Positions 1 to 15,945 of a stretch of DNA of 24,000 bases are shown here, piece after piece. Every line of letters starts with the position of its first letter. Positions within the stretch are counted from its first letter, which is position 1. Under the pieces are notes generated by a model. That model saw only the letters and a list, made by a program, of their open reading frames with translations. It had not been told where the DNA came from and did no database searches. The stretch is taken from the NCBI GenBank assembly GCA_019801015.1, contig JAHVJZ010000010.1, forward strand, positions 74,872 through 98,871, written 5' to 3'. Source of the stretch: Marinobacter nauticus (GTDB taxonomy: Bacteria > Pseudomonadota > Gammaproteobacteria > Enterobacterales > Shewanellaceae). Both the position numbers and the translations under genes were made by a program.

Positions 1-374
1 TGGCTCATGCCAAGGGACTGACATACCTTGGTCAGCCTGAGCAAGTGGGAAGCAAAGGACACCGCAGAATTCATTCCTTTGGCGAACACACTAGAGTGTT
101 CGAACAGCTCCTGGTAGACGGCATATTTGGCTTCAGCGACGAAACTGATCGGCATGGCTCCCCAGTTGATCTGGTCGCGTGGATTCTCTTTCTTGGTGTG
201 CCGGTAGGAGCTTAGATCCCACAGGATGTCGTTGTAGCAACTTAGCGTACCGCCGTCCCTGGTGCAGCTAACGACCACTTTCTCGAACTGGCTCGGGTTG
301 GTGTTGTCCACCGCCACTTTGACGTAATTCGGGACTGGCGTACCGTCTGCCGCGCCTTTAAAGATGGGTTCCAT
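1..374 (-). CDS. Third gene of the recombinase module (N-terminal 124 aa only; C-terminus lies beyond window start). Possibly a third tyrosine recombinase or an accessory protein.
   Basis: Hand translation of the minus strand from ATG at 374-372 stays open to position 1 (MEPIFKGAADGTPVPNYVKVAVDNT...ILWDLSSYRHTKKENPRDQINWG...LLRLTKVCQSLGMS). An AGGA Shine-Dalgarno lies 5-6 nt upstream. The start is 9 nt after the TAA of the 614-aa gene, so it is operonic. It is absent from the ORF track only because no stop codon falls inside the window. Confidence 0.55.
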   Translation of the reverse strand, partial: MEPIFKGAADGTPVPNYVKVAVDNTNPSQFEKVVVSCTRDGGTLSCYNDILWDLSSYRHTKKENPRDQINWGAMPISFVAEAKYAVYQELFEHSSVFAKGMNSAVSFASHLLRLTKVCQSLGMS

Positions 375-382
375 GGTTGTCC

Positions 383-2227
383 TTACCAGTTGGAATAGAA
401 GTCCTGAGCCGCGTCCTCATCGTCCCAGAGGGGGTGGGTTTCGTTATTGAACTTGGCGCGGGCCTCGGCATACACCTCAGGGTAATTACACTCGACCTCA
501 CCCAGGTCGGCCCGGACCCGTTTGATGACCGCCCGGACCTTATCCACAGGGAAGCCGCTGTGGTTGATTGTGGGTTTTATCAGTGCCTCCACTAGACATT
601 CCAGAAAGCTCAGCATGCACCAAATGTCATCCACTTCAGCCACGAGGGCGCGGTGTTCGCATTTAAAGCAATCGAGGAACTGGAAGCATGGCACTTCCTC
701 CCCTTCGCGTACCAGGCCCGCCTTCTCCAGGTTCGTTTGGGCACGCTTGGCCTTCTCGCCAAAGGGATCCTTACAGCGTGTGCCTATCTTGGTTTTGCGC
801 GGCACCTTCTCGCTGGTCTGCTGCATATCTTTGAGGCGTCTGGCCTTACCGTACGTGGCTTCCACGGCCTCGCGGGCCTTTTCAAGCGTCTCGCCACGGG
901 CGATTAGCTCGATGGCCTCGGCTGCACTGCCCAGCCGGTTGTTGTTTTCGTGTGGGTTACCATTGACGTAAGCGCGAGCCACCGTCCCCAACTCGTTGTT
1001 GAGCCCCTCGGCAACTAGGCTCAGGCTGCCTGTCGCGGAATAAAGGCCTTCCGACTTGGTTTTTCGGAAGCGGCTCACAACGGGCTGGATCTTGCCCGCG
1101 CAGCGGGGCAGAAACCATTTGTTGAACTTAGCCAGGCTGTCAAGGCTAATGGGCTTTCCGGTGTAGACACCATCCATGATCCGAGGAAACAGCCACGTAT
1201 CTTCGGGCAGGTCCATTTGCTCCAGCAGGCCAAAGTAAGCGTTGAGAAAGTCAAGGCCTCGTTTGGTGAAGCCCACGTCAACGGGGTTTTCTTTGCCTCC
1301 CTGGCGCCCCTTCTCGGATACAAGACGGTACAACCCCAAGGCCTTGTCGAATTGATACTTGTGCCCTGCGACGTCAGTGCGGCGTAGCTTGATTAGGTTG
1401 GAGGTATTCTTGCCGGTGTAGGCGGCTACCAGGAAGAACGCGCAGCTTACGAACTTCACCTGCCAAGCGCTCGTATTTTGAGGGTTCACAGCCCATCGTT
1501 TGGCGGGCTGACTGAAGGGGCAGTTGGCTTGTTCCGGGACCTCGTTGGCCTTCAGCTTCTTGCCCAGGCTGTTAAACACAGTGAATAAGTCGCGCACCAC
1601 GGCGCGAAACTCATCGTCAGTATAGGGGAGTGGGGTGCCGGCTCTAGCTCTGGGGCTTGGGGGTACTGGCAGGGTGTCGGCCAAGTCACTGCGGCCCAGC
1701 CAGCGCAAGAACCTCCGGAACCACCTCATGGCTTCAGACCACTTACTATGCGATGCCGGGTCCTGGCGGCACTGTTCGATGGTGTGCTGGCGCAGCGTGT
1801 TGATACACGCTGGGGTCAACTCGACGGGTACAGCAAGCCCGTCCAGCGCCCTGAATACCTGCTTCATCGCTCCAAAACCGGTACTGGCCGAGTGGATGTT
1901 GCTCTGGGAGTCTAGGAACTCCCGAACTTGCACCACCATTGGCAGGCGGCTTTTTACTACCTCACCAGCCAGACTTAGGGTGCTTTGACCCTTACTTCCG
2001 CTCCGAGTCACTTTAGGCACCCCAAGGTAGGCTAGTCGGCCTACATAAATGGTCAGTGGCCTTTTATCTTCTTTTACGCCCCTTACCGTCAGGTTGAGCA
2101 GGTCCAGCGGCACCGTTTTCAGCTCGGGGTCATAGGTACCCTTGGCGGGGACAGGTGGGACACTAAGGGTCGCATGACGAGTTTTGCGGTGCCTCTTGGG
2201 CCACTCAATAGTGGTTTCTTCAGTCAT
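383..2227 (-). CDS. Large divergent tyrosine-recombinase-like protein (middle gene of the trio; size and position resemble Tn554 TnpB or GInt-type second integrases)
   Basis: 614-aa ORF separated from its neighbours by 13 nt and 9 nt. By eye, segment FFLVAAYTGKNTSNLIKL aligns with the Arg-I box of the upstream integrase (LLALYTGMRRAEVLS). SRFRKT aligns with HNLRPT, and ARAYVNG is a candidate Tyr box. The C-terminus has a Cys cluster, CFQFLDCFKCEH...WCMLSFLEC. Confidence 0.6.
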   Translation of the reverse strand: MTEETTIEWPKRHRKTRHATLSVPPVPAKGTYDPELKTVPLDLLNLTVRGVKEDKRPLTIYVGRLAYLGVPKVTRSGSKGQSTLSLAGEVVKSRLPMVVQVREFLDSQSNIHSASTGFGAMKQVFRALDGLAVPVELTPACINTLRQHTIEQCRQDPASHSKWSEAMRWFRRFLRWLGRSDLADTLPVPPSPRARAGTPLPYTDDEFRAVVRDLFTVFNSLGKKLKANEVPEQANCPFSQPAKRWAVNPQNTSAWQVKFVSCAFFLVAAYTGKNTSNLIKLRRTDVAGHKYQFDKALGLYRLVSEKGRQGGKENPVDVGFTKRGLDFLNAYFGLLEQMDLPEDTWLFPRIMDGVYTGKPISLDSLAKFNKWFLPRCAGKIQPVVSRFRKTKSEGLYSATGSLSLVAEGLNNELGTVARAYVNGNPHENNNRLGSAAEAIELIARGETLEKAREAVEATYGKARRLKDMQQTSEKVPRKTKIGTRCKDPFGEKAKRAQTNLEKAGLVREGEEVPCFQFLDCFKCEHRALVAEVDDIWCMLSFLECLVEALIKPTINHSGFPVDKVRAVIKRVRADLGEVECNYPEVYAEARAKFNNETHPLWDDEDAAQDFYSNW

Positions 2228-2240
2228 CAGGTATCAATTT

Positions 2241-3671
2241 CTACTGCAGGATTTTTTGGCACACCGCCACTGACGTATCGTCACCGAATAGATCATCCAG
2301 ATACTCTTCGTAGGCTCGGTCAGCCCTACGCCCCTGGTCATTGTCATTCCAGTAGCGTAGGTAGTGTGTGGTTGTCATGGCATTGCTGTGGCGGAGGCGC
2401 TTTTGCACTAGAGCCAACGCTTCATCGGGATTCACGATCGGCTCGTTAGGGTGCTTTGGATGGTCGCTGGGGTAGCGGCGGCCAAGGCAGTTCGAGAGTA
2501 GATTGACGGCGTAAGTCGGTCTTAGGTTGTGGAACTTGTGGTTAAAGGACATGAGCCCATGGTCGATGTAGATGGCTTTGCGGATCTCACCCCAACGAGC
2601 ATTTAACGTGCCTTCTGCATAAGGCTTTCCTCGGTTATTGAGCAACAGTGGCGGATACTTTTTGGCAAAACCATCTTTGGTCTGTTTTAGATATTTGGTT
2701 AGGCGGGCTTTGTAGCGTGTGCTCTGCTTATAGTGCGCCAGTTCTTGCATCAACCAAACCGGCAACACAATTTCTCCAGTTTTTCCGCCTTTGGTTGCGC
2801 AGCAGACGTGTGGCCCAATGCTGAGTTCGATGGCTTGTTTTCCAATCTTAGGAGGGGACACTAGGGCGCTGCTGAAACTCAGAACTTCAGCTCGACGCAT
2901 ACCGGTGTAAAGAGCTAACAATACGGCTAGCTTGGTCTCTAAAGAGATTCTCTTAGAGACGTAGCGCCGACGTTTGACTGTATAACAGCGCCCGGTGTTG
3001 AGAGTGGCTATCAGGGTGTGCAATTCGGGGTTATCTTTGCTGCGTTCAAGAGGACGCAGGTCGTGCGGGGTATGGTCGGTGCGTCGGGCAGGTTGGTCTT
3101 TCGGCTTGATCTTTAGGTCGGTGGTTTCGATAAAGATAGCCTTGTTGAGGTGGCCCAACATGTTGTCGTTTTGGATTTTTGCTTGTCGAAACTCGCAGGG
3201 CGAGCGACAAAAGTTGATCCCCTTAGCAAGCCAGTGGCGGTACAGACCAATAGCGGCCCCTAGGTAAGTTCTGGCGGTATTGGACGACAGTTTGTGGCGA
3301 CCCGTATAGGGATCGATTTCTTCATGCAACGCCTGTAAGTAGTCTCGGAAGCGGTAAAGGGGTCGTTGGTACTGGGGTCTTGGCATGTGATCCCATTGGA
3401 TCCCAACCTCATCGAGAAAGCGGAAATAGTGGCATAGGCCCTTAGTCTTCGACGATAGGTCCACTTCCAAGTCAACGGACTTACAGTAGATCAGGTATTC
3501 GTTGGCACAGTTAATTGGGTTGCTGTCTGCGTCGAACAGGAGGTACATGTTTTCCAGCGTGACGCCGTCTTCGGTCCACCCTTCTACATGGCCCTCTCCA
3601 TCATCGTTGATTCCCAGTATGGGAGTTGCCCCAACTTCCATACTGGGAATCTTGGTGTAGTGAACTGCCAT
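2241..3671 (-). CDS. Tyrosine recombinase / phage-type integrase (first gene of the trio)
   Basis: 476-aa ORF with recognisable catalytic boxes: Arg-I in LYTGMRRAEVLS, HxxR in FHNLRPTYAVN, and His/Tyr in LRHSNAMTTTHYLRY. The N-terminal region resembles a core-binding (SAM-like) domain (ARTYLGAAIGLYRHW). Confidence 0.85.
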   Translation of the reverse strand: MAVHYTKIPSMEVGATPILGINDDGEGHVEGWTEDGVTLENMYLLFDADSNPINCANEYLIYCKSVDLEVDLSSKTKGLCHYFRFLDEVGIQWDHMPRPQYQRPLYRFRDYLQALHEEIDPYTGRHKLSSNTARTYLGAAIGLYRHWLAKGINFCRSPCEFRQAKIQNDNMLGHLNKAIFIETTDLKIKPKDQPARRTDHTPHDLRPLERSKDNPELHTLIATLNTGRCYTVKRRRYVSKRISLETKLAVLLALYTGMRRAEVLSFSSALVSPPKIGKQAIELSIGPHVCCATKGGKTGEIVLPVWLMQELAHYKQSTRYKARLTKYLKQTKDGFAKKYPPLLLNNRGKPYAEGTLNARWGEIRKAIYIDHGLMSFNHKFHNLRPTYAVNLLSNCLGRRYPSDHPKHPNEPIVNPDEALALVQKRLRHSNAMTTTHYLRYWNDNDQGRRADRAYEEYLDDLFGDDTSVAVCQKILQ

Positions 3672-3783
3672 TGCTCCTCCTTGAGCTCGCGATATTGCGT
3701 GGCAAACGATCTACTGCTTTTTATCTGAGCATTTCTAAGGCAGACAGGTAATGATCTAACGCAAGGTTTTAAGAGGCATCAAT

Positions 3784-3820
3784 GTGTGGAGGTCAGGCTT
3801 GATAGGGAAGGTGTGGGGGT
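3784..3820 (+). repeat. Paired direct decamers GTGTGGAGGT (3784-3793) and GTGTGGGGGT (3811-3820), 27 bp start-to-start, at the island/yajD junction
   Basis: Read directly from the sequence. The same arrangement with the same spacing recurs at 5372-5408. Confidence 0.6.
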
Positions 3821-4020
3821 ATGACCACAACCACGAAAACAACCCATCTGACGGATCCAACTGGGAGTTGCTGTGCCTGTTCTGTCATGACAACGAACAT
3901 GAGAAATACACTCAGGCTGCGCAATATGGCAGTACCGTGCAGGCAGGGGAAGACCTGAAGCGCGATGTGGCTACCCACAACCCCTTTGCTGATCTTAAGG
4001 CGATGATGGGGAAGAAGTAG
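3811..4020 (+). pseudogene. yajD: yajD (HNH nuclease) 3' fragment, copy 1. It lacks the N-terminal Zn-ribbon and the first HNH histidine.
   Basis: The translation DHNHENNPSDGSNWELLCLFCHDNEHEKYTQAAQYGSTVQAGEDLKRDVATHNPFADLKAMMGKK matches the C-terminal ~65 aa of E. coli YajD as I remember it (..HIDHDHTNNPEDGSNWELLCLYCHDHEHSKYTEADQYGT..NPFADLKAMMNKK). Residues upstream (MWRSGLIGKVWGY) are not YajD-like. Confidence 0.8.
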
Positions 4021-4040
4021 CTCTGTACCCCAATACTAAT

Positions 4041-4076
4041 AGCAAAGGGCCCCTGTCTTATCAGGGGCCCTTTGCT
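4041..4076. terminator. Perfect 15-bp-stem hairpin (AGCAAAGGGCCCCTG / CAGGGGCCCTTTGCT, 6-nt loop), probably a bidirectional terminator
   Basis: Read directly from the sequence. It lies between the stop of yajD fragment 1 (4020) and the stop of the convergent 266-aa gene (4097), and is followed by ATTT. Confidence 0.7.
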
Positions 4077-4096
4077 ATTTAAGAGTGTGCTCCAGT

Positions 4097-4897
4097 TTAG
4101 TTGCAGCCGCCTTTTAGTTTTCCGTACACGTTGCCAGATTTCAAACAAGCTCCTTCACCTGGAATTATTTTTAAAGTGCCAGTGATTGTATTGTCTGTAG
4201 CGTATGTGTCAAAGTTATCAATAAGGGAAAGGTTCTTTCCCGCGTAGCCATTGATAATAAAGGACTGTTCGTTATCGGAGGACCTTATAGATCCTGACAC
4301 ATTATCCAATAGTGATATGGCGATAACATTTGCAATCAGTTTTAAGCTTCCCTCAATATGATTTTGCTGTGTGAAAGATATTTGAATTCCAACAACCTTT
4401 ACATCACCATAAATTATATTGTTTGCAATGGTGGCACTCTCGCCATTACCAGAAACTTCTAATGAGCCATTGATGGTTGAGTTATTTATGGAAACATTAG
4501 ATGTGTTTTTCAATAATATGTTGCCAATAATGTCCATTTGATTGAAGTGGGAGGCGGTAGATTCGTGTATTAAAACATTACCATAAATATCGCTGTTGAA
4601 AGAGCCTATATCTCCATTACTTATATCGATGTTTCCGTCAATGGTCGAGGCATTTGAAATGCTTATCTGTCCACCTTCTATTACACTCACATTACCAGTT
4701 AACTTGGCTCCATTTATCAACTTCAGTGTCCCACCGTCAACGATGAAATTATTCTCAAGGTATCCGCCGTCGATGGTGACTTCCTCACCAGCGCTGATGG
4801 TCAAACTACCGTTATCTTCTGAATCTGCAGATAGGTTTAGCGATATAAGTGCCTGAGAAACAAAAATAACCCACAACCACCGTTTGCGTGTAGACAT
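4097..4897 (-). CDS. Secreted repeat protein, probably beta-helix-like (bactofilin / autotransporter-passenger-like G-N-I/V repeats); function unknown
   Basis: ATG at 4897 lies 6 nt after GGAG (the track's TTG start at 4909 is less likely). There is a signal peptide, MSTRKRWLWVIFVSQALISLNLSA|DS. The body is repetitive short motifs (IDGNIDISNGDIGSF, IYGNVLIH, IIGNILLKN, INGSLEVSG, IYGDVKVVG). The gene is visibly AT-rich relative to its flanks. Confidence 0.7.
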   Translation of the reverse strand: MSTRKRWLWVIFVSQALISLNLSADSEDNGSLTISAGEEVTIDGGYLENNFIVDGGTLKLINGAKLTGNVSVIEGGQISISNASTIDGNIDISNGDIGSFNSDIYGNVLIHESTASHFNQMDIIGNILLKNTSNVSINNSTINGSLEVSGNGESATIANNIIYGDVKVVGIQISFTQQNHIEGSLKLIANVIAISLLDNVSGSIRSSDNEQSFIINGYAGKNLSLIDNFDTYATDNTITGTLKIIPGEGACLKSGNVYGKLKGGCN

Positions 4898-5371
4898 CTT
4901 AGACTCCAAATTCTCAATGCCTAAAAGGGGAGGTAAATTGTAGTTGATTATACATAGCTCTGCGTAATGAAATATGAGTTTTTCAAGTTTGATTTTTTAT
5001 TTGAAATACAAAGTTTTAGATGTTTTTAAAGAGCCGTGTCTGGTTATGCTGGCACTTAATAAAGTTAATTAATCAACGGCGTGTTCCCCCGAAACCTAAT
5101 TGTTCATCGAGTTTCATGAGCAGCAGAGCATGAAGAGCTTATCCAGGCGTAAATCGCCTCTTTTAGCGGTAAGTCGTTGAAATTATAAAAATACGGTTTC
5201 TGATGCGAAGTCGTAGTTGATAGAGGCTCCTTGTGGACGAGGTTGTTATTGATACGGGATGTTTTGGGCTCTTGGCGACATTCCGATATCGAGTCGATGC
5301 CCTGCGAGAGGGCGAACAATGTGAGGATGCCTTGAGCGGTCTTGAGAGAAGGAAATATGAGAGGAACATAT

Positions 5372-5408
5372 GTGTGGGGGTTGAGTCTGAGAGGATTAGT
5401 GTGGGGGT
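5372..5408 (+). repeat. Paired direct decamers GTGTGGGGGT (5372-5381 and 5399-5408), 27 bp start-to-start
   Basis: Read directly from the sequence. The 28 nt spanning the first decamer and the spacer match the 3783-3810 equivalent at 17/28 positions by hand alignment. Confidence 0.6.
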
Positions 5409-5608
5409 ACGACCACAACCACGAAAACAACCCATCTGACGGGTCAAACTGGGAGCTGTTGTGCTTGTTCTGCCATGACAACGAACATGAGAAGTACACT
5501 CAGGCGGCGCAATACGGCAGTACCGTGCAGGCAGGGGAAGATCTGAAGCGTGATACGGCCACCCACAACCCCTTTGCCGACCTCAAGGCAATGATGGCCA
5601 AGAAGTGA
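5399..5608 (+). pseudogene. yajD: yajD (HNH nuclease) 3' fragment, copy 2, truncated at the same point as copy 1
   Basis: The translation DHNHENNPSDGSNWELLCLFCHDNEHEKYTQAAQYGSTVQAGEDLKRDTATHNPFADLKAMMAKK differs from copy 1 at 2 residues. Hand alignment gives ~24 nucleotide differences over 210 nt, mostly synonymous third positions. Confidence 0.8.
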
Positions 5609-5630
5609 TTCGACCGTGTTATTTGCGAGA

Positions 5631-5657
5631 GGCCCCTGGTTCTGCAGGGGCTTTTTG
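5631..5657 (+). terminator. Rho-independent terminator downstream of yajD fragment 2
   Basis: Stem GCCCCTG (5632-5638) pairs with CAGGGGC (5645-5651) around a 6-nt loop, followed by TTTTTG. The core GGCCCCTG..CAGGGGC is shared with the 4041-4076 hairpin. Confidence 0.7.
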
Positions 5658-5781
5658 TTATGCGGTGTCCATAGCGTCAGTGATGAGATAAGCGTTATTA
5701 CCCCTTCGGCACTAACGATGCAGTGGAGGCGGTCCCGTTAAGCGTTTCAGATAGTGGCATGCCTTTACGCGTTGAAAATGC

Positions 5782-6519
5782 TCAAGTGGAGTTCCGCCTG
5801 ACGTTAAGGTCTTCGATAACGTGGTGATAGGCCAGTGTGACGATCACTTGCTCTTTGGTTTTTACGTCGCACTTGAACTTCAGCTTTTCCAGATGAAAAC
5901 GCACCGTTCGCTCCGAGATTTTCATCTTCCTGGCCGCTTGGGCGGCCGTCAGTCCCATCGCCAGCCATTGGGCACATTCACGTTCTCGTGCCGTCAGTTT
6001 GCGCATTAATTCGTTGATCTTTGATTGAGTGGCTAACTGATTAACCTGTTGATAAAAGGCCGTGCTCAGTACGCGAAGTCGCTCGCCATGTTCGGTCAGC
6101 CACTTTTCCGCTGATTCCCTACGAGGTAGCACATAGCCAAGACCTGATAAGTTGGTGCCGGTAAACAGTACATCGCTGACGCCATTGGACATGTTGAAGC
6201 TTGCGGCTTCGTTCCAGTATTCATTCAGCGCTTTGGTGCGCTCAAAAAGCCGCTGAACATAAGGCCAGGTGAACTGGGAAGCAGTGACTTTGCCAACAGA
6301 TATTGTCGGGTCGATATCGACATAACCGCACTCGAAATACTGGTTAATCCAGTCCTGCGGGTAATCACCCACCGCCTTCAGCACTTCGCCTGTGCTGTTC
6401 GATATTCTGAAAAAGCAAAACCGCTCTATGCCCATATCGGCGGTGATTGTCTTAAATGCAATGTTCAGCCCGTCTTCCGAATGACAGTGGAATAGCTTTC
6501 CAAGAACTTCGATATCCAT
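5782..6519 (-). CDS. LuxR-family AHL-type quorum-sensing receptor/regulator (a LuxR solo within this window)
   Basis: The N-terminal autoinducer-binding hallmarks keep TraR-like spacing in DWINQYFECGYVDIDPTISVGKVTASQFTW...(28 aa)...G: W, Y at +4, D at +9, P at +10, W at +15, G at +28. The C-terminal LuxR HTH reads LTARERECAQWLAMGLTAAQAARKMKISERTVRFHLEKL. ATG at 6519 is preferred over the two upstream GTGs. Confidence 0.9.
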   Translation of the reverse strand: MDIEVLGKLFHCHSEDGLNIAFKTITADMGIERFCFFRISNSTGEVLKAVGDYPQDWINQYFECGYVDIDPTISVGKVTASQFTWPYVQRLFERTKALNEYWNEAASFNMSNGVSDVLFTGTNLSGLGYVLPRRESAEKWLTEHGERLRVLSTAFYQQVNQLATQSKINELMRKLTARERECAQWLAMGLTAAQAARKMKISERTVRFHLEKLKFKCDVKTKEQVIVTLAYHHVIEDLNVRRNST

Positions 6520-6592
6520 CACCACACCCCATACACGTCAAGGCCAAATATCAGAGGAGCAAGCAGCGGATAAATATAGAAGCAACGAAGAC

Positions 6593-10340: not shown

Positions 10341-13300
10341 TTAGTCTATCAGCACCTGCTCGGTCAATCTGTCAGGTAAGATGGCGACATAGCCTTGCGA
10401 TGCATACATGTTTCCTTCATCGATTCTAAAAACCGCCAACTTCTTATCTCTGGCATTGTACAGCATCTTTTGACTCGTACTGGTGAACTCCCATGTCTCG
10501 CCAAAAGCGGCGCGGTCATGGATAAACTTAACGAGCGGAGTGTTTTCCGGATCAAGTCTTATCAGCACATCAATAGGGCCCCATTTGCTGAGATTTTCGA
10601 CATCAGCGTCATTTTCTTTATTGTGTTTTTTCCATACGTTGGCCCCACTATTGAATATGTTGGTGTTTGGTACGAGGCTATAGTACTCGCCATCGCTACC
10701 TTTCAATAATGGACCGTTGTCGAGAGTGGCGTTCCTGAAATAAAGTAGGGGTGATATAACTTCAAAAGTTAAATCTTCGCTCAAACTGATATAGTTCAAG
10801 TTCTGCTTTGACGTACCATTATCGGTAGAGGATAGTGCTCTTGTTATATTGCTCACCTCTGCTGTCCGTATCACGTAACGTTTTAGTTGACGATTTTTGT
10901 CCATATATATCATCACTCTCTCTTCCGAGATTTCAGTAAAACTGACTACGGTATTAAAGTCTTCCGGGAGCGTAATTTTTTCGTATCCGTTGGTTCGGAG
11001 TCGGTAATAGTTGCCTGAAACCGACACACCAATAGGGAAAAATGTAGCAGAATAGTATCCGGCATTGGTGACATTGATGATTGTATCGTCTTCTGGAGTT
11101 GCGTACTTAATGAGTTCGTCTCCTTCTGCGCGGTAAACTTCACCATTATTCTTTAGGATCATGGTGTATCGGGTATAGCGTGGCGTAGAAGGACCCGTTG
11201 TGAGCTTTACGTCTTCCATCCACAGCCTGGGCATTTTCCAACTGCCGCTAAATCCCCCAAGCCCGTGTTCGCCAAAGCCAATTCCCCATAACTTATTGTC
11301 TTTGGTTAAAAGGCCGCTCAAGCCCTTGTAGGCAGTTATTGCTATTGCACGAACATTCTGTGGCAAACAAGCGAGTGACGGATTGGCCTCGACATCAGAG
11401 ACAAGTTCCGAATAGCTATAAGTGCCCTCTTTTAGCTTGTTCAGGTAACTCATGCTTATGGAGGGATCAAACCTGTTGCAGCCTTCACCAATATAATAGT
11501 AAGGCATCACATCGTCACTCAGTGTTGTTTGCATTTGGCCATTGGCATCAAAAAAGCCAACTTCACTTCGATTTGGATGGATTAAAAATGGCGTTGAGCC
11601 AAAGAATAATATTCTTCCATCCTTGGTGAATACCCATTGATATGGATAAGACTGTTGGTTAGGCACTGCGTGGGTGATAATGGGAGCGTTTGACTTTGTG
11701 TCCATAAAGCCGACAAAAGTGTTTGCGACCGAATTTACTGATGGCAGAGAGTCGGAGGCATAGTCTGCTGCAGGAATGCTTTTCTGGGTGTACGGTTTTC
11801 CATCCGCATCCGTCCACATCTCTCCGGTGTTAGGGTTTATAAAGATGGTGTTACTGACAGGTTGTCCCGTTACCGCATCGACTTGTGTGATGCTATAACC
11901 GTCCTTTGTACGCACTGGCATTCCGTTGGTATCCAGTTGCAGGGCGATGTCATTGCCATTCCCGGAGGTTAGGACTGCGCCATATGCGTCCACCACATCA
12001 TTGTCTTCGTTGACGATGAGCCCTGGCTTTACGAGTGCTGGGTCACCGGAGGCATCGGTCACCGGGTTTCCATTGCTGTCGGTTTGCACCACCTTCACTG
12101 CGCCGGTGGGATTGCCCTGGTTGTCTACCACCTCCAGCAGCAAATTGCCGTTGATGTCCCGGTCAATGCCGGTTTCGCTGCTGTCGATGGGTCGCAGTTC
12201 ATAGCCTTCAGGACCGAGGGTAATGGCGTCACCGGACGCATCAGTCAACCGGTCGCCGACAAGAAAATCCGGCGCGGTGCTGACAGAGGCAGTACCATTC
12301 TCACCCATCGACACGGTGGCGCCGTTGGCGGAGACCAAGTCACCAAAGCGGTCATAAACGTCGACCACCAGATTGCCGCTGGCGTCAGTAACCAATTCCC
12401 CCTCGTTGGTGTAGGTGGGCCTGAACTGCTGATTGCTGTCGTTGGTGACCAGATCGCCATTGCCATCAATCAGGTAGCCGTCTTCATTAACCAGCACGTC
12501 CGGCAGCGGGTTCAGGGTGGCATTGCCGTTTTCGTCCACCACCAATTCGCCTTTGTCGCCGGTTGCTGCGCCGGTGTCCGGGTCAATCACATCAACAATC
12601 AGGTTGCCGTCCGGGGAGGTAACCAGATCGCCATTGTCATCAGTAACGGCTTCCACTTCCTGCTGCTCGCCACCCACTGACACTTCCAGATTGTCGCCGT
12701 TGCTGTCGGTGATCGGCTGACCCGGCTCGATGATGAGATCCGGGGCGGTGCCGATGGTCACGGAGCCATCGTTACCCATGGTGGCGGTGGCGCCGTTGGC
12801 GGTAACCAGTTCGTCGTTGGCATTGTAAACGTCCAGTATCGGATTGCCATCGGCGTCAGTGATCAGCTCGCCGCTGTCGTTGTAGGTGGGTTTGAACTTC
12901 TGGCCCTGATCGTTGGTGACCAGATCGCCGTTGCCATCAATCAGGTAGCCATCGTCGTTAATCAACACCGCTGGCAGCGGCTCCAGAGTGGCGTTGCCGT
13001 TTTCATCCACCACCAGCTCACCCTTGTCACCAGTGGCTTCACCGGTGTCCGGGTCAATCACATCCACAATCGGATTGCCGTCCGGCGAGGAAATCAGATC
13101 GCCATTGTCATCAGTAACGGCTTCCACTTCCTGCTGCTCGCCATCCACCGTCACTTCCAGGTTGTCGCCGTTGCCGTCGGTAATTGGCTGACCGGGCTCG
13201 ATGATGAATCCCGGGGCGGTGCCGATGCTCACGGAGCCGTCGTTACCCATGGTGGCGGTGGCGCCATTGGCGGTAACCAGGTCGTCGTTGGCGCTGTACA

Positions 13301-15161
13301 CGTCCAGTACCGGATTGCCATCGGCGTCGGTGATCAGTTCGCCGTTGTCGTTGTAGGTGGGTTTGAACTTCTGGCCCTGATCGTTGGTGACCAGATCACC
13401 GTTGCCATCAACCAGGTAGCCTTCGTCATTGACCAGCACATCCGGCAGCGGGTTCAGGGTGGCGTTGCCGTTTTTATCGAACACCAGTTCGCCTTTGTCG
13501 CCGGTAGTTTCGCCGGTGTTCGGGTCAATCACATCGACAATCAGGTTACCGTCCGGAGAGTGGACAAAGTTTCCGTTTTCATCGGTGACCGGCACCACTT
13601 CATGCGCTTCACCATCCACGTCGACCCTTATGGCGTCGCCTTCAAGGTCTGTGATTGGGTGCTCTGGGAGCGCGATTGAACCGGGCTTTCGGCCGCTTAA
13701 GGTCCCTTCGGATTGGTTGTAGGAATCGGCTCTAGCCTCAGACAGGGTGCCATCCCGGTGGTAGGTGTCGACGATCACATTGCCCTGTTGGTCAAAGAGA
13801 ACGCTGCCATCCTCATTGCGGGACGGTTTAATCCATAAGCCGTCGCTGGTGCTGAAGCGGCTGCCTTCCGGACTCACCAGATAGCCCTGGCTATCCACAA
13901 TCAGCCCGGGTTCCTTGAGGATCGGGCTGCCGTCCGGATGGGCCATTGGTTTGCCGTTGTCATCGGTTTTCACCACCAGCAGTTCGCCGGTGGGATTGCC
14001 GCTGTGGTCGACAACCTCCAGCAGAACATCGCCATTGATGTCTGTGGTGATGCCGGCAGCATGATTCATCGGGCGTAACTGGTAACCGTCCGGCCCATAG
14101 GTGATGGGGTTGCCGGAGAGATCAGTAAGCCGGTCGCCTAGCAGAAGTCCGGGGGCGGGTTTAACGCTGGCAACGCCACTGTCATCCACCGCCACGGTCG
14201 CGCCGTTTTCGCTGACCAGATCACCGTTGGGGGAATACACATCCACGACGACGTTGCCATTGGTGTCGGTGACCAGTTCACCACTGTCGGTATAAGTGGG
14301 CTTGAAGCTTTGGTTTTGATCGTTGGTGACCAGATTGCCATCGCGATCAACCAGGTAGCCCTGATCATTCACCAGAACCGGCGGCAGGGGGCCGATGGTG
14401 GGGTTGTTGTCTTCATCAATGGTGAGCTCACCTTTGTCGCCACTGGGCTTGCCGGTGTCCGGATCGATAAGGTCGACCACGAGGTTGCCATCCGGAGAGG
14501 TCACCAGTGCGCCACTTTCATCGACAATTGGTCTCAGGGCCCATTGCTCGCCTCCGTCATCCACCAAAACCGGATTGCCATCAAGGTCGGTGAGGGAGTG
14601 GCCAGGCACCACCAGAACATCCGGGCCATTGCCCGTCAGCTCAGCGCTCTCTGTGTCCAGAGTGTTGGCTTTATTAGCGACCAGAGTGCCGTCGGTGGTA
14701 TGGGTATCGACAACGACGTTGCCTTTGCTGTCAAAGAGGATATTACCGTCGTTGTCCCTGGAAGGTTTGAGCAGCAGTCCACCGGTGGTGAGAATACGAT
14801 TTCCCTCGGTATCAACGAGGTAACCCTCATTGTCGATAATGGGATGGGAGGCCGGGAAGAAAGTCACTTCTCCGGCACTGTTCCGAATCGGTACGTTATC
14901 ACTATCCACCTCGATAAAGACGACTTCTCCAGACTCGGTGAGCTTAACCAGAATCCGGCCGTACTCATCCCGAATCAGATTTTGATTTTCAGAAAGTACC
15001 GCCTCGAAAGGGTAGAGATCGAAAGGTAGCGCTATTTTGCTTTCTTTTGAGGTTTGGTCATAGACATCGATCCCATCGCTGTTACAACCTGAAACGCCTG
15101 TCACGATAAACGCAGCAGCAATCAAATTTAATCTAAACGTCTTCATATTTATTAGTGCCAA
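10341..15161 (-). CDS. Giant surface lipoprotein (about 1600 aa) with Asp/Gly/Asn-rich tandem modules and a distinct C-terminal domain; putative adhesin or Ca-binding repeat protein
   Basis: Single uninterrupted ORF. Lipoprotein signal: MKTFRLNLIAAAFIVTGVSG|C. The start is either TTG at 15161 (GGGGA ~9 nt upstream) or ATG at 15146. Motifs of the type D-x-D/N-G-N-x-(I/V)-V-D and GYL(V/I)D recur, and GDKGEL recurs at residues 242, 555, 712 and 869. The last ~500 aa are non-repetitive. Confidence 0.9.
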   Translation of the reverse strand: MALINMKTFRLNLIAAAFIVTGVSGCNSDGIDVYDQTSKESKIALPFDLYPFEAVLSENQNLIRDEYGRILVKLTESGEVVFIEVDSDNVPIRNSAGEVTFFPASHPIIDNEGYLVDTEGNRILTTGGLLLKPSRDNDGNILFDSKGNVVVDTHTTDGTLVANKANTLDTESAELTGNGPDVLVVPGHSLTDLDGNPVLVDDGGEQWALRPIVDESGALVTSPDGNLVVDLIDPDTGKPSGDKGELTIDEDNNPTIGPLPPVLVNDQGYLVDRDGNLVTNDQNQSFKPTYTDSGELVTDTNGNVVVDVYSPNGDLVSENGATVAVDDSGVASVKPAPGLLLGDRLTDLSGNPITYGPDGYQLRPMNHAAGITTDINGDVLLEVVDHSGNPTGELLVVKTDDNGKPMAHPDGSPILKEPGLIVDSQGYLVSPEGSRFSTSDGLWIKPSRNEDGSVLFDQQGNVIVDTYHRDGTLSEARADSYNQSEGTLSGRKPGSIALPEHPITDLEGDAIRVDVDGEAHEVVPVTDENGNFVHSPDGNLIVDVIDPNTGETTGDKGELVFDKNGNATLNPLPDVLVNDEGYLVDGNGDLVTNDQGQKFKPTYNDNGELITDADGNPVLDVYSANDDLVTANGATATMGNDGSVSIGTAPGFIIEPGQPITDGNGDNLEVTVDGEQQEVEAVTDDNGDLISSPDGNPIVDVIDPDTGEATGDKGELVVDENGNATLEPLPAVLINDDGYLIDGNGDLVTNDQGQKFKPTYNDSGELITDADGNPILDVYNANDELVTANGATATMGNDGSVTIGTAPDLIIEPGQPITDSNGDNLEVSVGGEQQEVEAVTDDNGDLVTSPDGNLIVDVIDPDTGAATGDKGELVVDENGNATLNPLPDVLVNEDGYLIDGNGDLVTNDSNQQFRPTYTNEGELVTDASGNLVVDVYDRFGDLVSANGATVSMGENGTASVSTAPDFLVGDRLTDASGDAITLGPEGYELRPIDSSETGIDRDINGNLLLEVVDNQGNPTGAVKVVQTDSNGNPVTDASGDPALVKPGLIVNEDNDVVDAYGAVLTSGNGNDIALQLDTNGMPVRTKDGYSITQVDAVTGQPVSNTIFINPNTGEMWTDADGKPYTQKSIPAADYASDSLPSVNSVANTFVGFMDTKSNAPIITHAVPNQQSYPYQWVFTKDGRILFFGSTPFLIHPNRSEVGFFDANGQMQTTLSDDVMPYYYIGEGCNRFDPSISMSYLNKLKEGTYSYSELVSDVEANPSLACLPQNVRAIAITAYKGLSGLLTKDNKLWGIGFGEHGLGGFSGSWKMPRLWMEDVKLTTGPSTPRYTRYTMILKNNGEVYRAEGDELIKYATPEDDTIINVTNAGYYSATFFPIGVSVSGNYYRLRTNGYEKITLPEDFNTVVSFTEISEERVMIYMDKNRQLKRYVIRTAEVSNITRALSSTDNGTSKQNLNYISLSEDLTFEVISPLLYFRNATLDNGPLLKGSDGEYYSLVPNTNIFNSGANVWKKHNKENDADVENLSKWGPIDVLIRLDPENTPLVKFIHDRAAFGETWEFTSTSQKMLYNARDKKLAVFRIDEGNMYASQGYVAILPDRLTEQVLID
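12267..13679 (-). repeat. Three tandem in-frame 471-bp (157-aa) coding repeats inside the giant lipoprotein gene; a more diverged copy lies at ~14145-14615
   Basis: The GDKGEL anchors are exactly 157 aa apart. The antisense shadow ORFs at 12517, 12988 and ~13462 are near-identical (MALPFSSTT.SPLSPVA.PVSGSITSTI.LPSGE...) with a 471-nt offset. Confidence 0.85.
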
Positions 15162-15853
15162 ATAGTTATTCCCCTGCCCAAGGGGAAAGGAAGGAGTAAA
15201 GTAAAAAGGACAAATGACCAGATCACTTTTTCCTCGTTGAATTTTAATGAATTACGGTTTTTAAACGTGTCGATGATTAGACTTCGACCCGTAGCCTAAA
15301 CAGCCGACTGGCCGGATAAGTTGATGATGCATAGTTTGGCAATAAGAGTCTTACCAAGCCATCGCAAAGGATAAAGGGTTTGTTAAATCTCGTGTATGGT
15401 GCTGAACAATGATTTTGTGTCTGAGTTGTATTCTTGAATCGGGCAGTGGAAATATAAAGGGTGATAATATTAATAAATAAGACATCATTACTTAATTAAT
15501 CAGAATAAATTAATGTTATTTGTACATTTTTAATTAATGTAATCTCAGCGCCATGTCTGCGTTGATACCGTGACTGCACTTTGTGCGGTTGCGCGGATCT
15601 CTTGGCCTGGCAGCGTATTCAGTGGGGCGTTCTGCCCCGACGTCAGGCGAAGTGGCGCTGCCATTCTGTTCATTCCAATTTATCGGAAGGCGTTGGCGCT
15701 GTGGCAGAGTGGCCGATGCACAGGTTGACCCAAAGGCCATTCGGAGCGGCGCGGTTCTTCGTTTATTGATGCTCTGATGCTGATGACCAGCGTCGGGCGA
15801 GCAAGCCGAAAACGGCTCACAGTGACCACTCAGTAAGTGAATGAGAAGGAAAG

Positions 15854-15945
15854 TGGTAGGGGCGGTGGGATTCGAACCCACAACCTGCCGCTTATCTGGC
15901 GCCACGGAGTATAAACCCGCTGCTCTACCATTGAGCTACGCCCCC
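15854..15945 (-). tRNA. Atypical 92-nt tRNA-like gene with encoded CCA, a canonical acceptor/D/T core, and two consecutive anticodon-arm-like hairpins (loops UUUAUAC and CAGAUAA)
   Basis: Minus-strand read: GGGGGCG UA GCUC AAUGGUA GAGC A GCGGG UUUAUAC UCCGU GGCGC CAGAUAA GCGGC AGGUU GUGGG UUCGAAU CCCAC CGCCCCU A CCA. The acceptor has 7 bp (G1-U72 wobble), the D-loop has GG, and the T-loop is UUCGAAU. See findings for the ambiguity. Confidence 0.6.

Follow-up and report, generated by a model that had tools for sequence, protein, structure and literature searches.

In the published accounts (PMC10214605, PMC9345347), SEs (strand-biased circularizing integrative elements) circularise without leaving an empty donor site. 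They encode the core proteins IntA and IntB, which are catalytic tyrosine recombinases with R-H-R-Y residues, as well as Tfp, which lacks these residues, and Srap, both of them required accessory proteins. The core proteins join the two termini of the element, motifs C and C', which are imperfect 13-19-bp inverted repeats ending in GTA, to form a circular copy. The circle enters a specific attB, taking 6 bases beside motif C and leaving them beside C'. Published SEs have 6-bp footprints and no attP-type surrogate gene ends. SE-6283 carries a copy of bcp that offsets its disrupted target, and secondary nick sites have been reported for this element (PMC10214605; Nonaka et al. 2022, PMC9345347). 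Recognition of SEs dates only from 2018-2023, and the copy-out process, the strand bias and the 6-bp footprint are still unsettled.

Like the locus described here, GInts (ginABCD) have a four-gene recombination operon at one island end and insert site-specifically, either at genes or within them; their flanking repeats are imperfect, and they form circular intermediates (Bardaji et al. 2017, PMC5385486). They insert at gene ends and leave the gene product unaltered. SE and GInt proteins cluster separately, the GInt flanking repeats are 10-17 nt, and the non-catalytic protein is encoded third in GInts (GinC), whereas it is second in the module described below. Tn554 and Tn552-II (tnpABC) also combine two tyrosine recombinases with a small accessory protein, however, they have no Tfp counterpart, their hosts are Firmicutes, and the sequence that they bring in is 6-7 bp. 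Tn552-II features 'brought-in' att sequences and carries a target-gene-like gene that is proposed to rescue the disrupted target; there the rescue is by a separate gene, whereas here it would be by an in-frame 3' replacement. A further comparison is provided by CIMEs, which are recombinase-less, att-bounded elements that sit as tandem neighbours of an autonomous element in one gene, with accretion occurring via repeated site-specific integration. Tandem accretion of CIMEs and ICESt1-type elements has reportedly been described (Pavlovic et al. 2004). ICESt1-type elements use a single integrase and Xis, and their attP carries the 3' end of the target gene by design.

The locus lies in the window, which is the whole 24,000-nucleotide stretch of DNA analysed. 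Its features suggest that an SE, termed SE-A, probably inserted in yajD beside an older mini-element, mini-SE B, that had already rebuilt the gene with a spare 3' end. The features are as follows.

1-374, minus strand: 5' part of intB (large tyrosine recombinase, SE core), start ATG at 374-372, extending past the left window edge.
383-2227, minus strand: tfp, encoding the 614-aa 'tyrosine recombinase fold protein' of SEs, in which a catalytic domain is not recognisable.
2241-3671, minus strand: intA (476 aa, tyrosine recombinase), matching Pfam Phage_integrase at 27.7 bits (cutoff 27.1).
3772-3821, minus strand: intA-proximal terminus of SE-A (motif C region); the outer 11-mer, 3811-3821, reads GTGTGGGGGTA on the plus strand, and the end is at A3821.
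3822-4020, plus strand: yajD orphan 1, comprising the third base of codon 47, codons 48-112 and a TAG stop; NF008448 match.
4026-4040, plus strand: probable motif C' (distal terminus) of mini-SE B, TACCCCAATACTAAT, the inverted partner of 5395-5409.
4038-4079, no strand: bidirectional terminator, an 18-bp perfect hairpin, of yajD copy 1 and the convergent 266-aa gene.
4097-4897, minus strand: 266-aa gene, the only gene of mini-SE B, encoding a predicted secreted beta-solenoid-like protein with a weak PF24078 match.
4898-5359, no strand: low-GC non-coding interior of mini-SE B, 63% identical to Ferrimonas balearica (F. balearica).
5360-5409, minus strand: motif C terminus of mini-SE B, with the outer 11-mer at 5399-5409, the inner 10-mer at 5372-5381 and the end at A5409.
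5410-5608, plus strand: yajD orphan 2, comprising the third base of codon 47, codons 48-112 and a TGA stop; NF008448 match.
5625-5658, plus strand: terminator hairpin of orphan 2, followed by a T-run.

In the recombinase module of SE-A, intA, tfp and the start of intB are co-oriented, tightly spaced and directed inward from the terminus; the left end of SE-A, with srap, cargo, C' and the yajD 5' half, would lie off-window. An earlier note on this DNA had described an inward multi-recombinase module ~110 bp from the junction, and this description stands except for the distance, as the start of intA is 150 bp from the junction and 113 bp from the inner repeat. IntA has the invariant residues R259, K294, H381-x-x-R384, H428, and Y437, and the best of the 21 homologues found are 48-53% identical. 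For Tfp, neither Pfam nor NCBIfam gave a match. Window Tfp is 43-44% identical to the second genes of three relatives (L001, L003, and L006), and the N-terminus of window IntB is 22-34% identical to their third genes (674-677 aa). The start of intB is 9 nt after the tfp stop, and this spacing is the same in relatives. The four-gene module (~476, 590-614, 675, and 170 aa) is kept in all relatives examined, and srap is present in every one. The domain pattern is as published for SEs, with an integrase domain in IntA, none in Tfp, a weak C-terminal match in IntB and a weak TetR_N match in Srap. The last two were seen in the proteins of relatives, where the IntB match is to Phage_integrase; the catalytic part of window IntB is off-window. 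A single-sequence AF2 model of Tfp was unusable (pLDDT 37), hhalign of Tfp or IntB against IntA profiles and PDB sequence searches returned no match, and a peptide-pattern scan for Tfp in genome representatives found none. A weak match between the IntB N-terminus and YajD (23.5 bits, 12/52 identities) was judged to be due to chance; the IntB proteins of relatives lack it.

The second gene of L001 corresponds to NC_014541.1 1768384-1770207, a tfp orthologue in Additional file 3 of Idola et al., which lists it together with srap at 1765838-1766344. In that catalogue the Ferrimonas replicon has a score of 1 for SE but of 0 on a second sheet, which is apparently that for GInts. Because the window module is orthologous to these catalogued Ferrimonas tfp/srap blocks, SE-A is assigned on sequence grounds to the SE family (intA-tfp-intB-srap) rather than to GInts or Tn554, and the kinship with Tn554 or GInts suggested earlier is replaced by one based on gene order and catalogued orthology. 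The likeness to SEs includes the core order intA-tfp-intB(-srap) beside one terminus with inward transcription (PMC10214605; PMC9345347), termini that end in GTA with candidate imperfect inverted repeats, site-specific insertion inside a gene, and a gammaproteobacterial (Alteromonadales) host. The locus differs in that no protein found exceeds 53% identity to window IntA, in its two sub-terminal direct 10-mers with 27-nt spacing, of which the available text of the two SE papers makes no mention, in a neighbouring mini-element that has no core genes and ~200 bp of duplicated target instead of the 6-bp footprint, and in two insertions stacked at one site. The locus is a new target and a new twist of the known SE class, not a new class.

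These comparisons make it improbable that the locus consists of classical GInt/Tn554-like islands whose attP carries the yajD 3' end, with an intact yajD and a third repeat to the left of island A. A multi-recombinase module does adjoin the junction, insertion at a gene end that spares the gene product is known from GInts (PMC5385486), and island B leaves an intact yajD on its left in F. balearica. However, the module is orthologous to catalogued SE tfp/srap genes on a replicon scored 0 in the apparent GInt sheet, the protein without a recognisable catalytic domain is second, as in SEs, and not third, as in GInts, and the Tfp orthologue of 614 aa between the two recombinase genes sets the module apart from tnpA-tnpB-tnpC of Tn554, which has no Tfp. 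The published SE and GInt ends are 6-bp or 10-17-nt repeats and not 200-bp gene ends. The core is also multi-protein, unlike that of a classical single-integrase island, and relatives of SE-A have no duplicated flank within 11 kb and show short-spacer C' junctions. Since published SEs leave 6-bp footprints without surrogate gene ends, there is no default expectation of an intact yajD with a third repeat on the left side of island A. In contrast to ICESt1-type elements, the locus has SE-type machinery, and a co-mobilised flank accounts better for its duplicated gene end.

The motif C termini of SE-A and mini-SE B, 1.6 kb apart, have identical outer 11-mers. In SE-A the inner 10-mer (3784-3793) lies exactly 27 nt start-to-start from the outer copy, and motif C of mini-SE B likewise features two 10-mers 27 nt apart, together with CTCTCA sub-motifs. 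Paired ACC(C/T)CCACAY 10-mers with 27-nt spacing are located 117-150 nt upstream of intA in the Enterobacter, Aeromonas, and plasmid relatives; on one Logan contig (L009) the spacing is 26 nt. Both motif C 10-mers of mini-SE B are conserved between the window and F. balearica (21/21), in adjacent non-coding DNA that is ~63% identical. The paired sub-terminal 10-mers are candidate protein-binding sites of one SE subfamily. The termini end in GTA, like published SE termini. Both ends are seen in L001 and in L012, whose C' partner is GTGTTGGGGTA followed by GTCTGG. Motif C of SE-A is followed by the attB sequence CGACCA, which fits the attL side of the 6-bp footprint rule, and the attR of SE-A is off-window.

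The two junctions are followed by copies of the yajD 3' end. A direct repeat of 247 nt and 85% identity (3772-4018 / 5360-5606) was found with a repeat-finding tool and then aligned. NCBIfam NF008448, the profile of the YajD family HNH nucleases, is matched by each of the ORF fragments from position 44/45 to 113 of its 113 with E ~1e-30, and alignment with full-length YajD proteins showed that each begins at D48 and contains codons 48-112, confirming the two imperfect repeats of yajD 3' codons that had been noticed by eye. The CxxC pair and the VHH histidines are absent from both fragments, with VWG in their place, so the loss of the Zn-ribbon and the first HNH histidine is also upheld. The repeat homology reaches ~39 nt further upstream than 3811/5399 at lower identity, and yajD sequence begins at 3822/3823 in copy 1 and 5410/5411 in copy 2. 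The truncation context is indeed shared by both junctions, as had been proposed, but GTGTGGGGGTA belongs to the SE motif C terminus and not to yajD. Between 3811-4020 and 5399-5608, 23/210 nt differ (~24 by the previous hand count), 16 of them at third positions, with 2 amino acid changes, as in that count. The corresponding dN/dS is 0.026 and dS is 0.69. Purifying selection on each copy had been proposed, but gene conversion from the working copy can also yield so low a ratio. Orphan 2 is presumed to be the original chromosomal 3' end of yajD. The terminators had been called homologous; both hairpins fold strongly (-35.1 kcal/mol, z -7.0 at 4038-4079; -24.1 kcal/mol, z -4.4 for orphan 2), but past the stop codons the likeness of the two copies is limited to the GC-rich hairpin arms. 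A consensus terminator scan found neither hairpin and direct folding confirmed both.

Insertion took place within codons 45-47 of the 112, at the two histidine codons (His-His) of the HNH motif, and the yajD attB reads GTT CAT CAT AT / C GAC CAC, where the slash marks the position at which SE-A splits the gene. The site is thus mid-gene and not at the 3' end as the earlier note had it, although two successive site-specific insertions at the same point of yajD, which it also proposed, are supported. The recombinase relatives occupy other targets. The yajD junction patterns had no match in genome representatives, metagenomes or viral contigs, and the Ferrimonas-type yajD core pattern had none in metagenomes. 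The idea of yajD as a dedicated attachment site is supported for this Ferrimonas lineage only. yajD is a target not reported before for SEs.

The segment between the two junctions (4026-5409) is 1,384 bp of low-GC DNA without a recombinase, flanked by the ~200-bp yajD repeats, rather than a cargo-bearing island. GC of 37-40% is restricted to ~1.25 kb, the flanks have roughly 60% GC, and the 266-aa gene lies in 38-40% GC DNA. In a set of 5.8 billion proteins the 266-aa protein has just two homologues (one of 100% identity, probably from the source genome itself, and one of 88% identity in F. balearica), PADLOC gave no match for it or its neighbours, and the gene has a dS of 0.10 and a dN/dS of 0.6 in comparison with F. 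balearica. Searching 3700-5800 with all four SE core proteins (tblastn) revealed nothing significant and no recombinase remnant. Both termini are probably kept, recombinase genes are absent, and SE-A with compatible ends lies alongside, as in a non-autonomous derivative. The segment is read here as a recombinase-less mini-SE with putative mobilisation and is the first candidate found for such an element.

A 16-nt inverted repeat (4025-4040 / 5395-5410) is 88% identical (14/16), and the candidate C' at 4026-4040 is located 7 nt past the breakpoint of homology between copies 1 and 2. Only three window positions, 4026 among them, match the C' of a relative, TACCCCAACAC, with at most 1 mismatch, where 0.53 per window are expected. 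The candidate has no GAGAG sub-motif of the kind found near C' in relatives, its F. balearica counterpart has one further mismatch (TCCCCCAATAC), and the AT-rich segment holds other chance inverted repeats of like length. The sequence adjoining it is ~204 bp of yajD, compared with the canonical 6 bp. It could be supposed that B is instead the stump of a full-size SE that carried a whole complementing yajD, from which deletions and recombination removed the core and C', the motif at 4026 being fortuitous. SE-6283-type elements carry a target-gene copy, SE core genes usually lie right beside motif C and are missing here, chance inverted repeats are common in such an AT-rich stretch, and a structure common to two diverged genomes is consistent with an old decaying relic. 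Nevertheless, this history is rather unlikely, as it needs at least 2 deletions with precise ends, one of which would have to stop no more than ~100 bp from motif C, and a 15-nt terminus with a 13/15 inverted match 7 nt from the breakpoint has a calculated chance of ~2e-5 at that place. Perfectly kept motif C 10-mers amid 63% identity are also not explained by a dead stump.

The order of events is indicated by an F. balearica genome, L008, which features an intact 112-aa yajD, the 266-aa gene, the motif C end and a decayed orphan. Its second junction is that of the window, but its yajD is uninterrupted at the place that SE-A takes up in the window. Window 3823-5606 aligns with L008 11075-9302 at 82.5% identity (blastn). 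The amino acids of orphan 1 are 100% identical to those at 48-112 in the intact YajD of F. balearica, and nucleotide identity to that genome is roughly 94-96% from ~3872 onward. This 'B-only' arrangement bears out the earlier proposal that orphan 1 was the working 3' end until island A came. Orphan 2 has 97% amino acid identity to F. balearica YajD, and its counterpart there is decayed (12-nt deletion, TAG stop, H to D change). Because F. balearica has B but no SE-A, and its yajD to the left of B is intact, B exists independently, SE-A is a simple insertion into it, and the comparison supports the order in which B came first, yajD was whole afterwards, and SE-A then entered the rebuilt gene. 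The same arrangement counts against A and B being one composite element with its working right end at the outer motif C at 5409 and with the inner motif C, orphan 1 and the 266-aa gene as internal relics of a previous host. The identical outer 11-mers would allow the same recombinases to use either end, and orphan 1 and the 266-aa gene look as if imported, being ~95% identical to F. balearica where orphan 2 diverges more; with B present without SE-A beside an intact gene, however, a composite is very improbable.

Some of the history has been rewritten. The identity to F. balearica is mosaic (~95% over 3872-4921 and 50-65% over 4922-5400), and with W for window and F for F. balearica, only 1 site groups W1+F1 against W2+F2 and 4 sites group the copies by genome, so recombination or gene conversion has overwritten part of the record. 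A simple vertical descent of B, its orphans decaying neutrally, was discarded, since W2 has 14 unique changes, 12 of them synonymous, and no lesion; gene conversion or an independent arrival is needed. A large SE-B extending to the left of yajD was ruled out, as GC to the left of yajD in L008 is native-like (55-62%) and no yajD 5' duplicate is present within 10 kb. The Paraferrimonas yajD was set aside as a B-free reference because its context is not syntenic.

The preferred reading, insertion of SE-A beside an older mini-SE B, would begin with B landing at yajD. Tentatively, the B circle may have carried ~204 bases of donor flank by motif C, reaching from yajD codon 48 to slightly beyond the stop codon, or, in equivalent wording, B may have integrated via an attL-type site into an intact yajD. 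The long 'footprint' might then have been set down beside C', in frame with the native 5' half, rebuilding yajD, after which SE-A would have struck the same site. B would move only with recombinases given in trans by a resident SE. A 204-bp footprint is not known from any reported SE. Precedents for the rescue of a target are the bcp copy of SE-6283 and the target-gene-like gene and 'brought-in' att sequences of Tn552-II, to which the secondary nick sites of SE-6283 can be added. It is doubtful that B is a functional non-autonomous SE moved in trans and that SE circles can carry hundreds of flank bases, via a distant secondary nick or attL-type integration. If true, an SE would rebuild the gene that it interrupts and leave that gene open to re-targeting. 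Elements would thereby have an inbuilt way of accreting in tandem, and tyrosine-recombinase transposons could transduce host DNA on a small scale.

The locus adds to the SE family a new target, namely the codons of the catalytic His-His pair in yajD, and, for one subfamily, a conserved arrangement of sub-terminal repeats. It also adds a mini-SE candidate and the stacking of two SE insertions at a single site. If the ~200-bp duplicate is truly an over-long footprint, it would record the position of the top-strand nick, and SEs would be able to move host DNA and repair their own target. Additionally, relatives of SE-A carry CBASS anti-phage systems and one is set in an IncHI2 mcr plasmid, which makes this subfamily relevant to how defence and resistance genes spread.

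The recombinase module at the left of the window is, judged from sequence, the core of an SE, a class of integrative element with the core intA-tfp-intB-srap. The earlier note had described the 476-aa protein as an integrase and the 614-aa protein as a divergent integrase, which a domain match backs for the first only. The 476-aa protein, a tyrosine recombinase, scores above the Pfam cutoff and features the invariant R259, H381-x-x-R384, and Y437; its 21 homologues are at most 53% identical to it. The 614-aa protein has no domain match in Pfam or NCBIfam. From its start at 374, the third gene extends beyond the window. Four genes, encoding proteins of ~476, 590-614, 675, and 170 aa, form the same set in every relative context examined: the first is an integrase, the second has no recognisable domain, the large third has a weak integrase C-terminal match, and the small fourth has a weak TetR-like N-terminus. 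This pattern agrees with the published domain description of SEs. In Ferrimonas balearica (F. balearica) DSM 9799, the second and fourth genes of the set are NC_014541.1 1768384-1770207 and 1765838-1766344, which are catalogued as tfp and srap of an SE in the data of Idola et al.; there, NC_014541.1 scores 1 for SE and 0 in the apparent GInt sheet. The proposed likeness to GInts or Tn554 is not borne out: the non-catalytic protein, second in order here, is third in GInts and has no counterpart in Tn554, and the Ferrimonas relative is catalogued as SE. A weak local match (23.5 bits; HTKKENPRDQINW vs HNHENNPSDGSNW) between the IntB N-terminus (window 1-374, - strand) and the YajD HNH region was judged to be chance, as it is not shown by the IntB of relatives.

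At both window junctions, read in the intA orientation, TACCCCCACAC is followed by ACC(C/T)CCACAC 27 nt on. Relatives in Enterobacter, in Aeromonas, and on an IncHI2 plasmid have the same 10-mer pair at this spacing, 117-150 nt upstream of intA, which places the element ends on the window + strand, ...GTGTGGGGGTA, at 3821 and at 5409. The intA-proximal end (motif C) of this SE subfamily features two direct 10-mers, ACC(C/T)CCACAY, 27 nt apart (26 nt on Logan contig L009), and each is followed by a CTC(T/G)(C/A)AA (CTCNNAA) sub-motif. The paired 10-mers are located as follows.

Window 3784-3821: paired 10-mers, first junction
Window 5372-5409: paired 10-mers, second junction
Locus L003, 9884-9920: paired 10-mers of an SE relative
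Locus L006, 9881-9917: paired 10-mers of an SE relative
Loci L009, L010, and L012: paired 10-mers also present

From their sequence the pairs look like repeated putative protein-binding sites, and no mention of them was found in the accessible text of two SE papers (PMC10214605; Nonaka et al., PMC9345347). The termini of published SEs likewise end in GTA. At the far end (C') of complete relatives there is an inverted partner, GTGTTGGGGTA/GTCTGG in L012 and GGGTGAGGGTA/ATCCGT in L001. The earlier note was right that both yajD fragments are truncated in the same nucleotide context, but that context is the terminus of the element.

The two yajD 3' repeats in direct orientation are real. A repeat search returned a 247-nt pair (3772-4018 and 5360-5606) with 85% identity that aligns cleanly, and both fragments match the NCBIfam YajD model at profile positions 44/45-113 of 113. 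Alignment with full-length YajD proteins determined that D48 is the first YajD residue of both fragments, and that the CxxC pair and the V-H-H histidines are absent, with V-W-G-Y in place of the latter, confirming the loss of the Zn-ribbon and the HNH histidine. Strongly folding hairpins lie downstream of both. The fragments differ at 23 of 210 nt (the earlier count was ~24), with 16 of the 23 at third positions and, as first counted, 2 residue changes, giving a dN/dS of 0.026 and a dS of 0.69. Each motif C end (3784-4020 and 5372-5608, + strand) also features AGAGG with an in-frame GTG 7 nt on, which reads outward into the yajD orphan and results in ORFs of 78 aa and 79-88 aa. These ORFs may follow from the 27-nt (9-codon) spacing of the repeats, and expression is not conserved, since a stop codon interrupts the orphan in F. 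balearica.

Just two database proteins are homologous to the ORF between the repeats (270 aa; gene 266 aa): a 100% identical one labelled Marinobacter hydrocarbonoclasticus KUV89_17750, which probably comes from the source genome itself, and one from F. balearica at 88% identity. At the F. balearica locus (L008) an intact 112-aa yajD comes first, followed by the same terminator and the 266-aa gene; next are a motif C end, again with its two 10-mers, and a yajD 3' orphan that has lost 12 nt, contains a TAG stop, and shows an H to D replacement. Window 3823-5606 is 82.5% identical to this locus, with no further homology outside it, even by tblastx. The protein of orphan 1 is 100% identical to residues 48-112 of the intact F. 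balearica YajD. L008 thus has island B, the segment between the repeats, with an intact yajD and without SE-A, the recombinase-bearing element, a state that puts the arrival of B before that of SE-A. On this comparison SE-A entered later, when yajD was whole, at attB ...GTT CAT CAT AT/C GAC CAC.... The insertion point is at the catalytic His-His codons (45-47 of 112), mid-gene and not at the 3' end of yajD as the earlier note had it. The only 100% match to a window protein, that of P0142 (4097-4909), is annotated as M. hydrocarbonoclasticus, yet the locus and the SE have their nearest relatives in F. balearica; mislabelling or mixing of the assembly is possible.

From its sequence, island B is best read as a mini-SE of 1,384 bp (4026-5409) that has both termini and a single gene but lacks a recombinase; it is flanked by yajD direct repeats running from codon 48 to the stop. 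Low GC (37-40%) is limited to ~1.25 kb, with native-like flanks of ~60% GC, and a homology search with SE core proteins found no core-gene remnants. The C' candidate is TACCCCAATACTAAT on the + strand, 7 nt past the end of the yajD copy likeness (stop codon). [quoted passage not shown]

According to the SE literature, the circle of published SEs carries 6 bases beside motif C and deposits them beside C' at the new site, and secondary nick sites occur. A B circle that took along ~204 bases of donor flank, from yajD codon 48 to a little beyond the stop, or that integrated through its attL-type site into an intact yajD, would fuse the native 5' half in frame to the donor 3' half; C'...C and an orphaned native 3' half would follow, which is exactly the arrangement seen. 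This integration step is tentative, possible rather than probable. On this model the surrogate 3' end of the earlier note is the outcome, reached by another route. Within this element group there are precedents for rescue of the target: SE-6283 has a copy of bcp, and Tn552-II has a target-gene-like gene. The main rival explanation is that a full-size SE carrying a complementing yajD copy decayed in situ; however, both motif C 10-mers of B are identical in the two genomes amid adjoining non-coding DNA of 63% identity, which argues against a neutrally decaying stump.

The copies have a mosaic history. In a four-way comparison of window orphans 1 and 2, the F. balearica orphan, and the corresponding stretch of the intact yajD in that species, window orphan 2 is the outlier (14 unique changes, 12 synonymous), and the F. 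balearica orphan is near the intact gene but damaged. One site groups the copies by position and four by genome, three of these four within the first 18 nt of the comparison. The window is identical to F. balearica at 84% of positions over 3822-3871, ~95% over 3872-4921, and 50-65% over 4922-5400, with no similarity beyond ~5660. Against F. balearica, the dS of the 266-aa gene is 0.10 vs ~1.0 for the orphans. The simplest reading of these patterns is gene conversion between copies plus a ~1-kb allelic exchange between lineages. On that reading the low dN/dS does not by itself prove that each copy recently belonged to a working gene, as the earlier note took it to.

The flanks to the right of orphan 2 are entirely different between the window genome and F. 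balearica, with LuxR, an SH3 protein, and an adhesin in one genome and EamA, an acetyltransferase, and an acetyl-CoA synthetase in the other. Further features of the window are as follows.

5782-6525, - strand: LuxR-family regulator with an autoinducer-binding domain, directly downstream of orphan 2; none of the scanned neighbouring ORFs is a luxI-type synthase gene
10341-15161, - strand: 1606-aa ORF of 471-nt tandem units (four copies, 66-87% identity) and sub-repeats, its product probably a surface adhesin by sequence; GC falls to 42-47% in the 3' third (10341-12000)
15854-15945, - strand: ARAGORN call of a tRNA-Ile(tat), overlapping a 123-aa ORF beside a 39% GC dip (15001-15500); at 92 nt unusually long and probably a false positive or a degenerate tRNA

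Relatives carry CBASS-type anti-phage cargo, featuring a CD-NTase/DncV-like nucleotidyltransferase, E1/E2 (ThiF), JAB, and SAVED or Cap15 effectors.

L003, L004, and L005, 16400-21431: CBASS cargo
L009, 5995-11189: CBASS cargo
L012, 26417-34092: CBASS cargo

One CBASS-bearing SE copy is located on the conjugative IncHI2 plasmid p23141-mcr (NZ_MF788071.1), where its target (TGGCACGACATATGG/C) is similar in sequence to the yqjG target on the chromosome.

Other members of the SE subfamily occupy the 5' end of yqjG or sites beside the genes of a glutathione peroxidase and an M61 peptidase. Searches of genome representatives, metagenomes, and viral contigs gave no other yajD junction, and no connection between yajD and an integrative element emerged from the literature searched, in agreement with the earlier note, which knew of no description of yajD as an attachment site. 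SE-A belongs to a known class, for which yajD is new as a target. The element next to it may be a variant, namely a mini-SE whose long footprint restores the gene.
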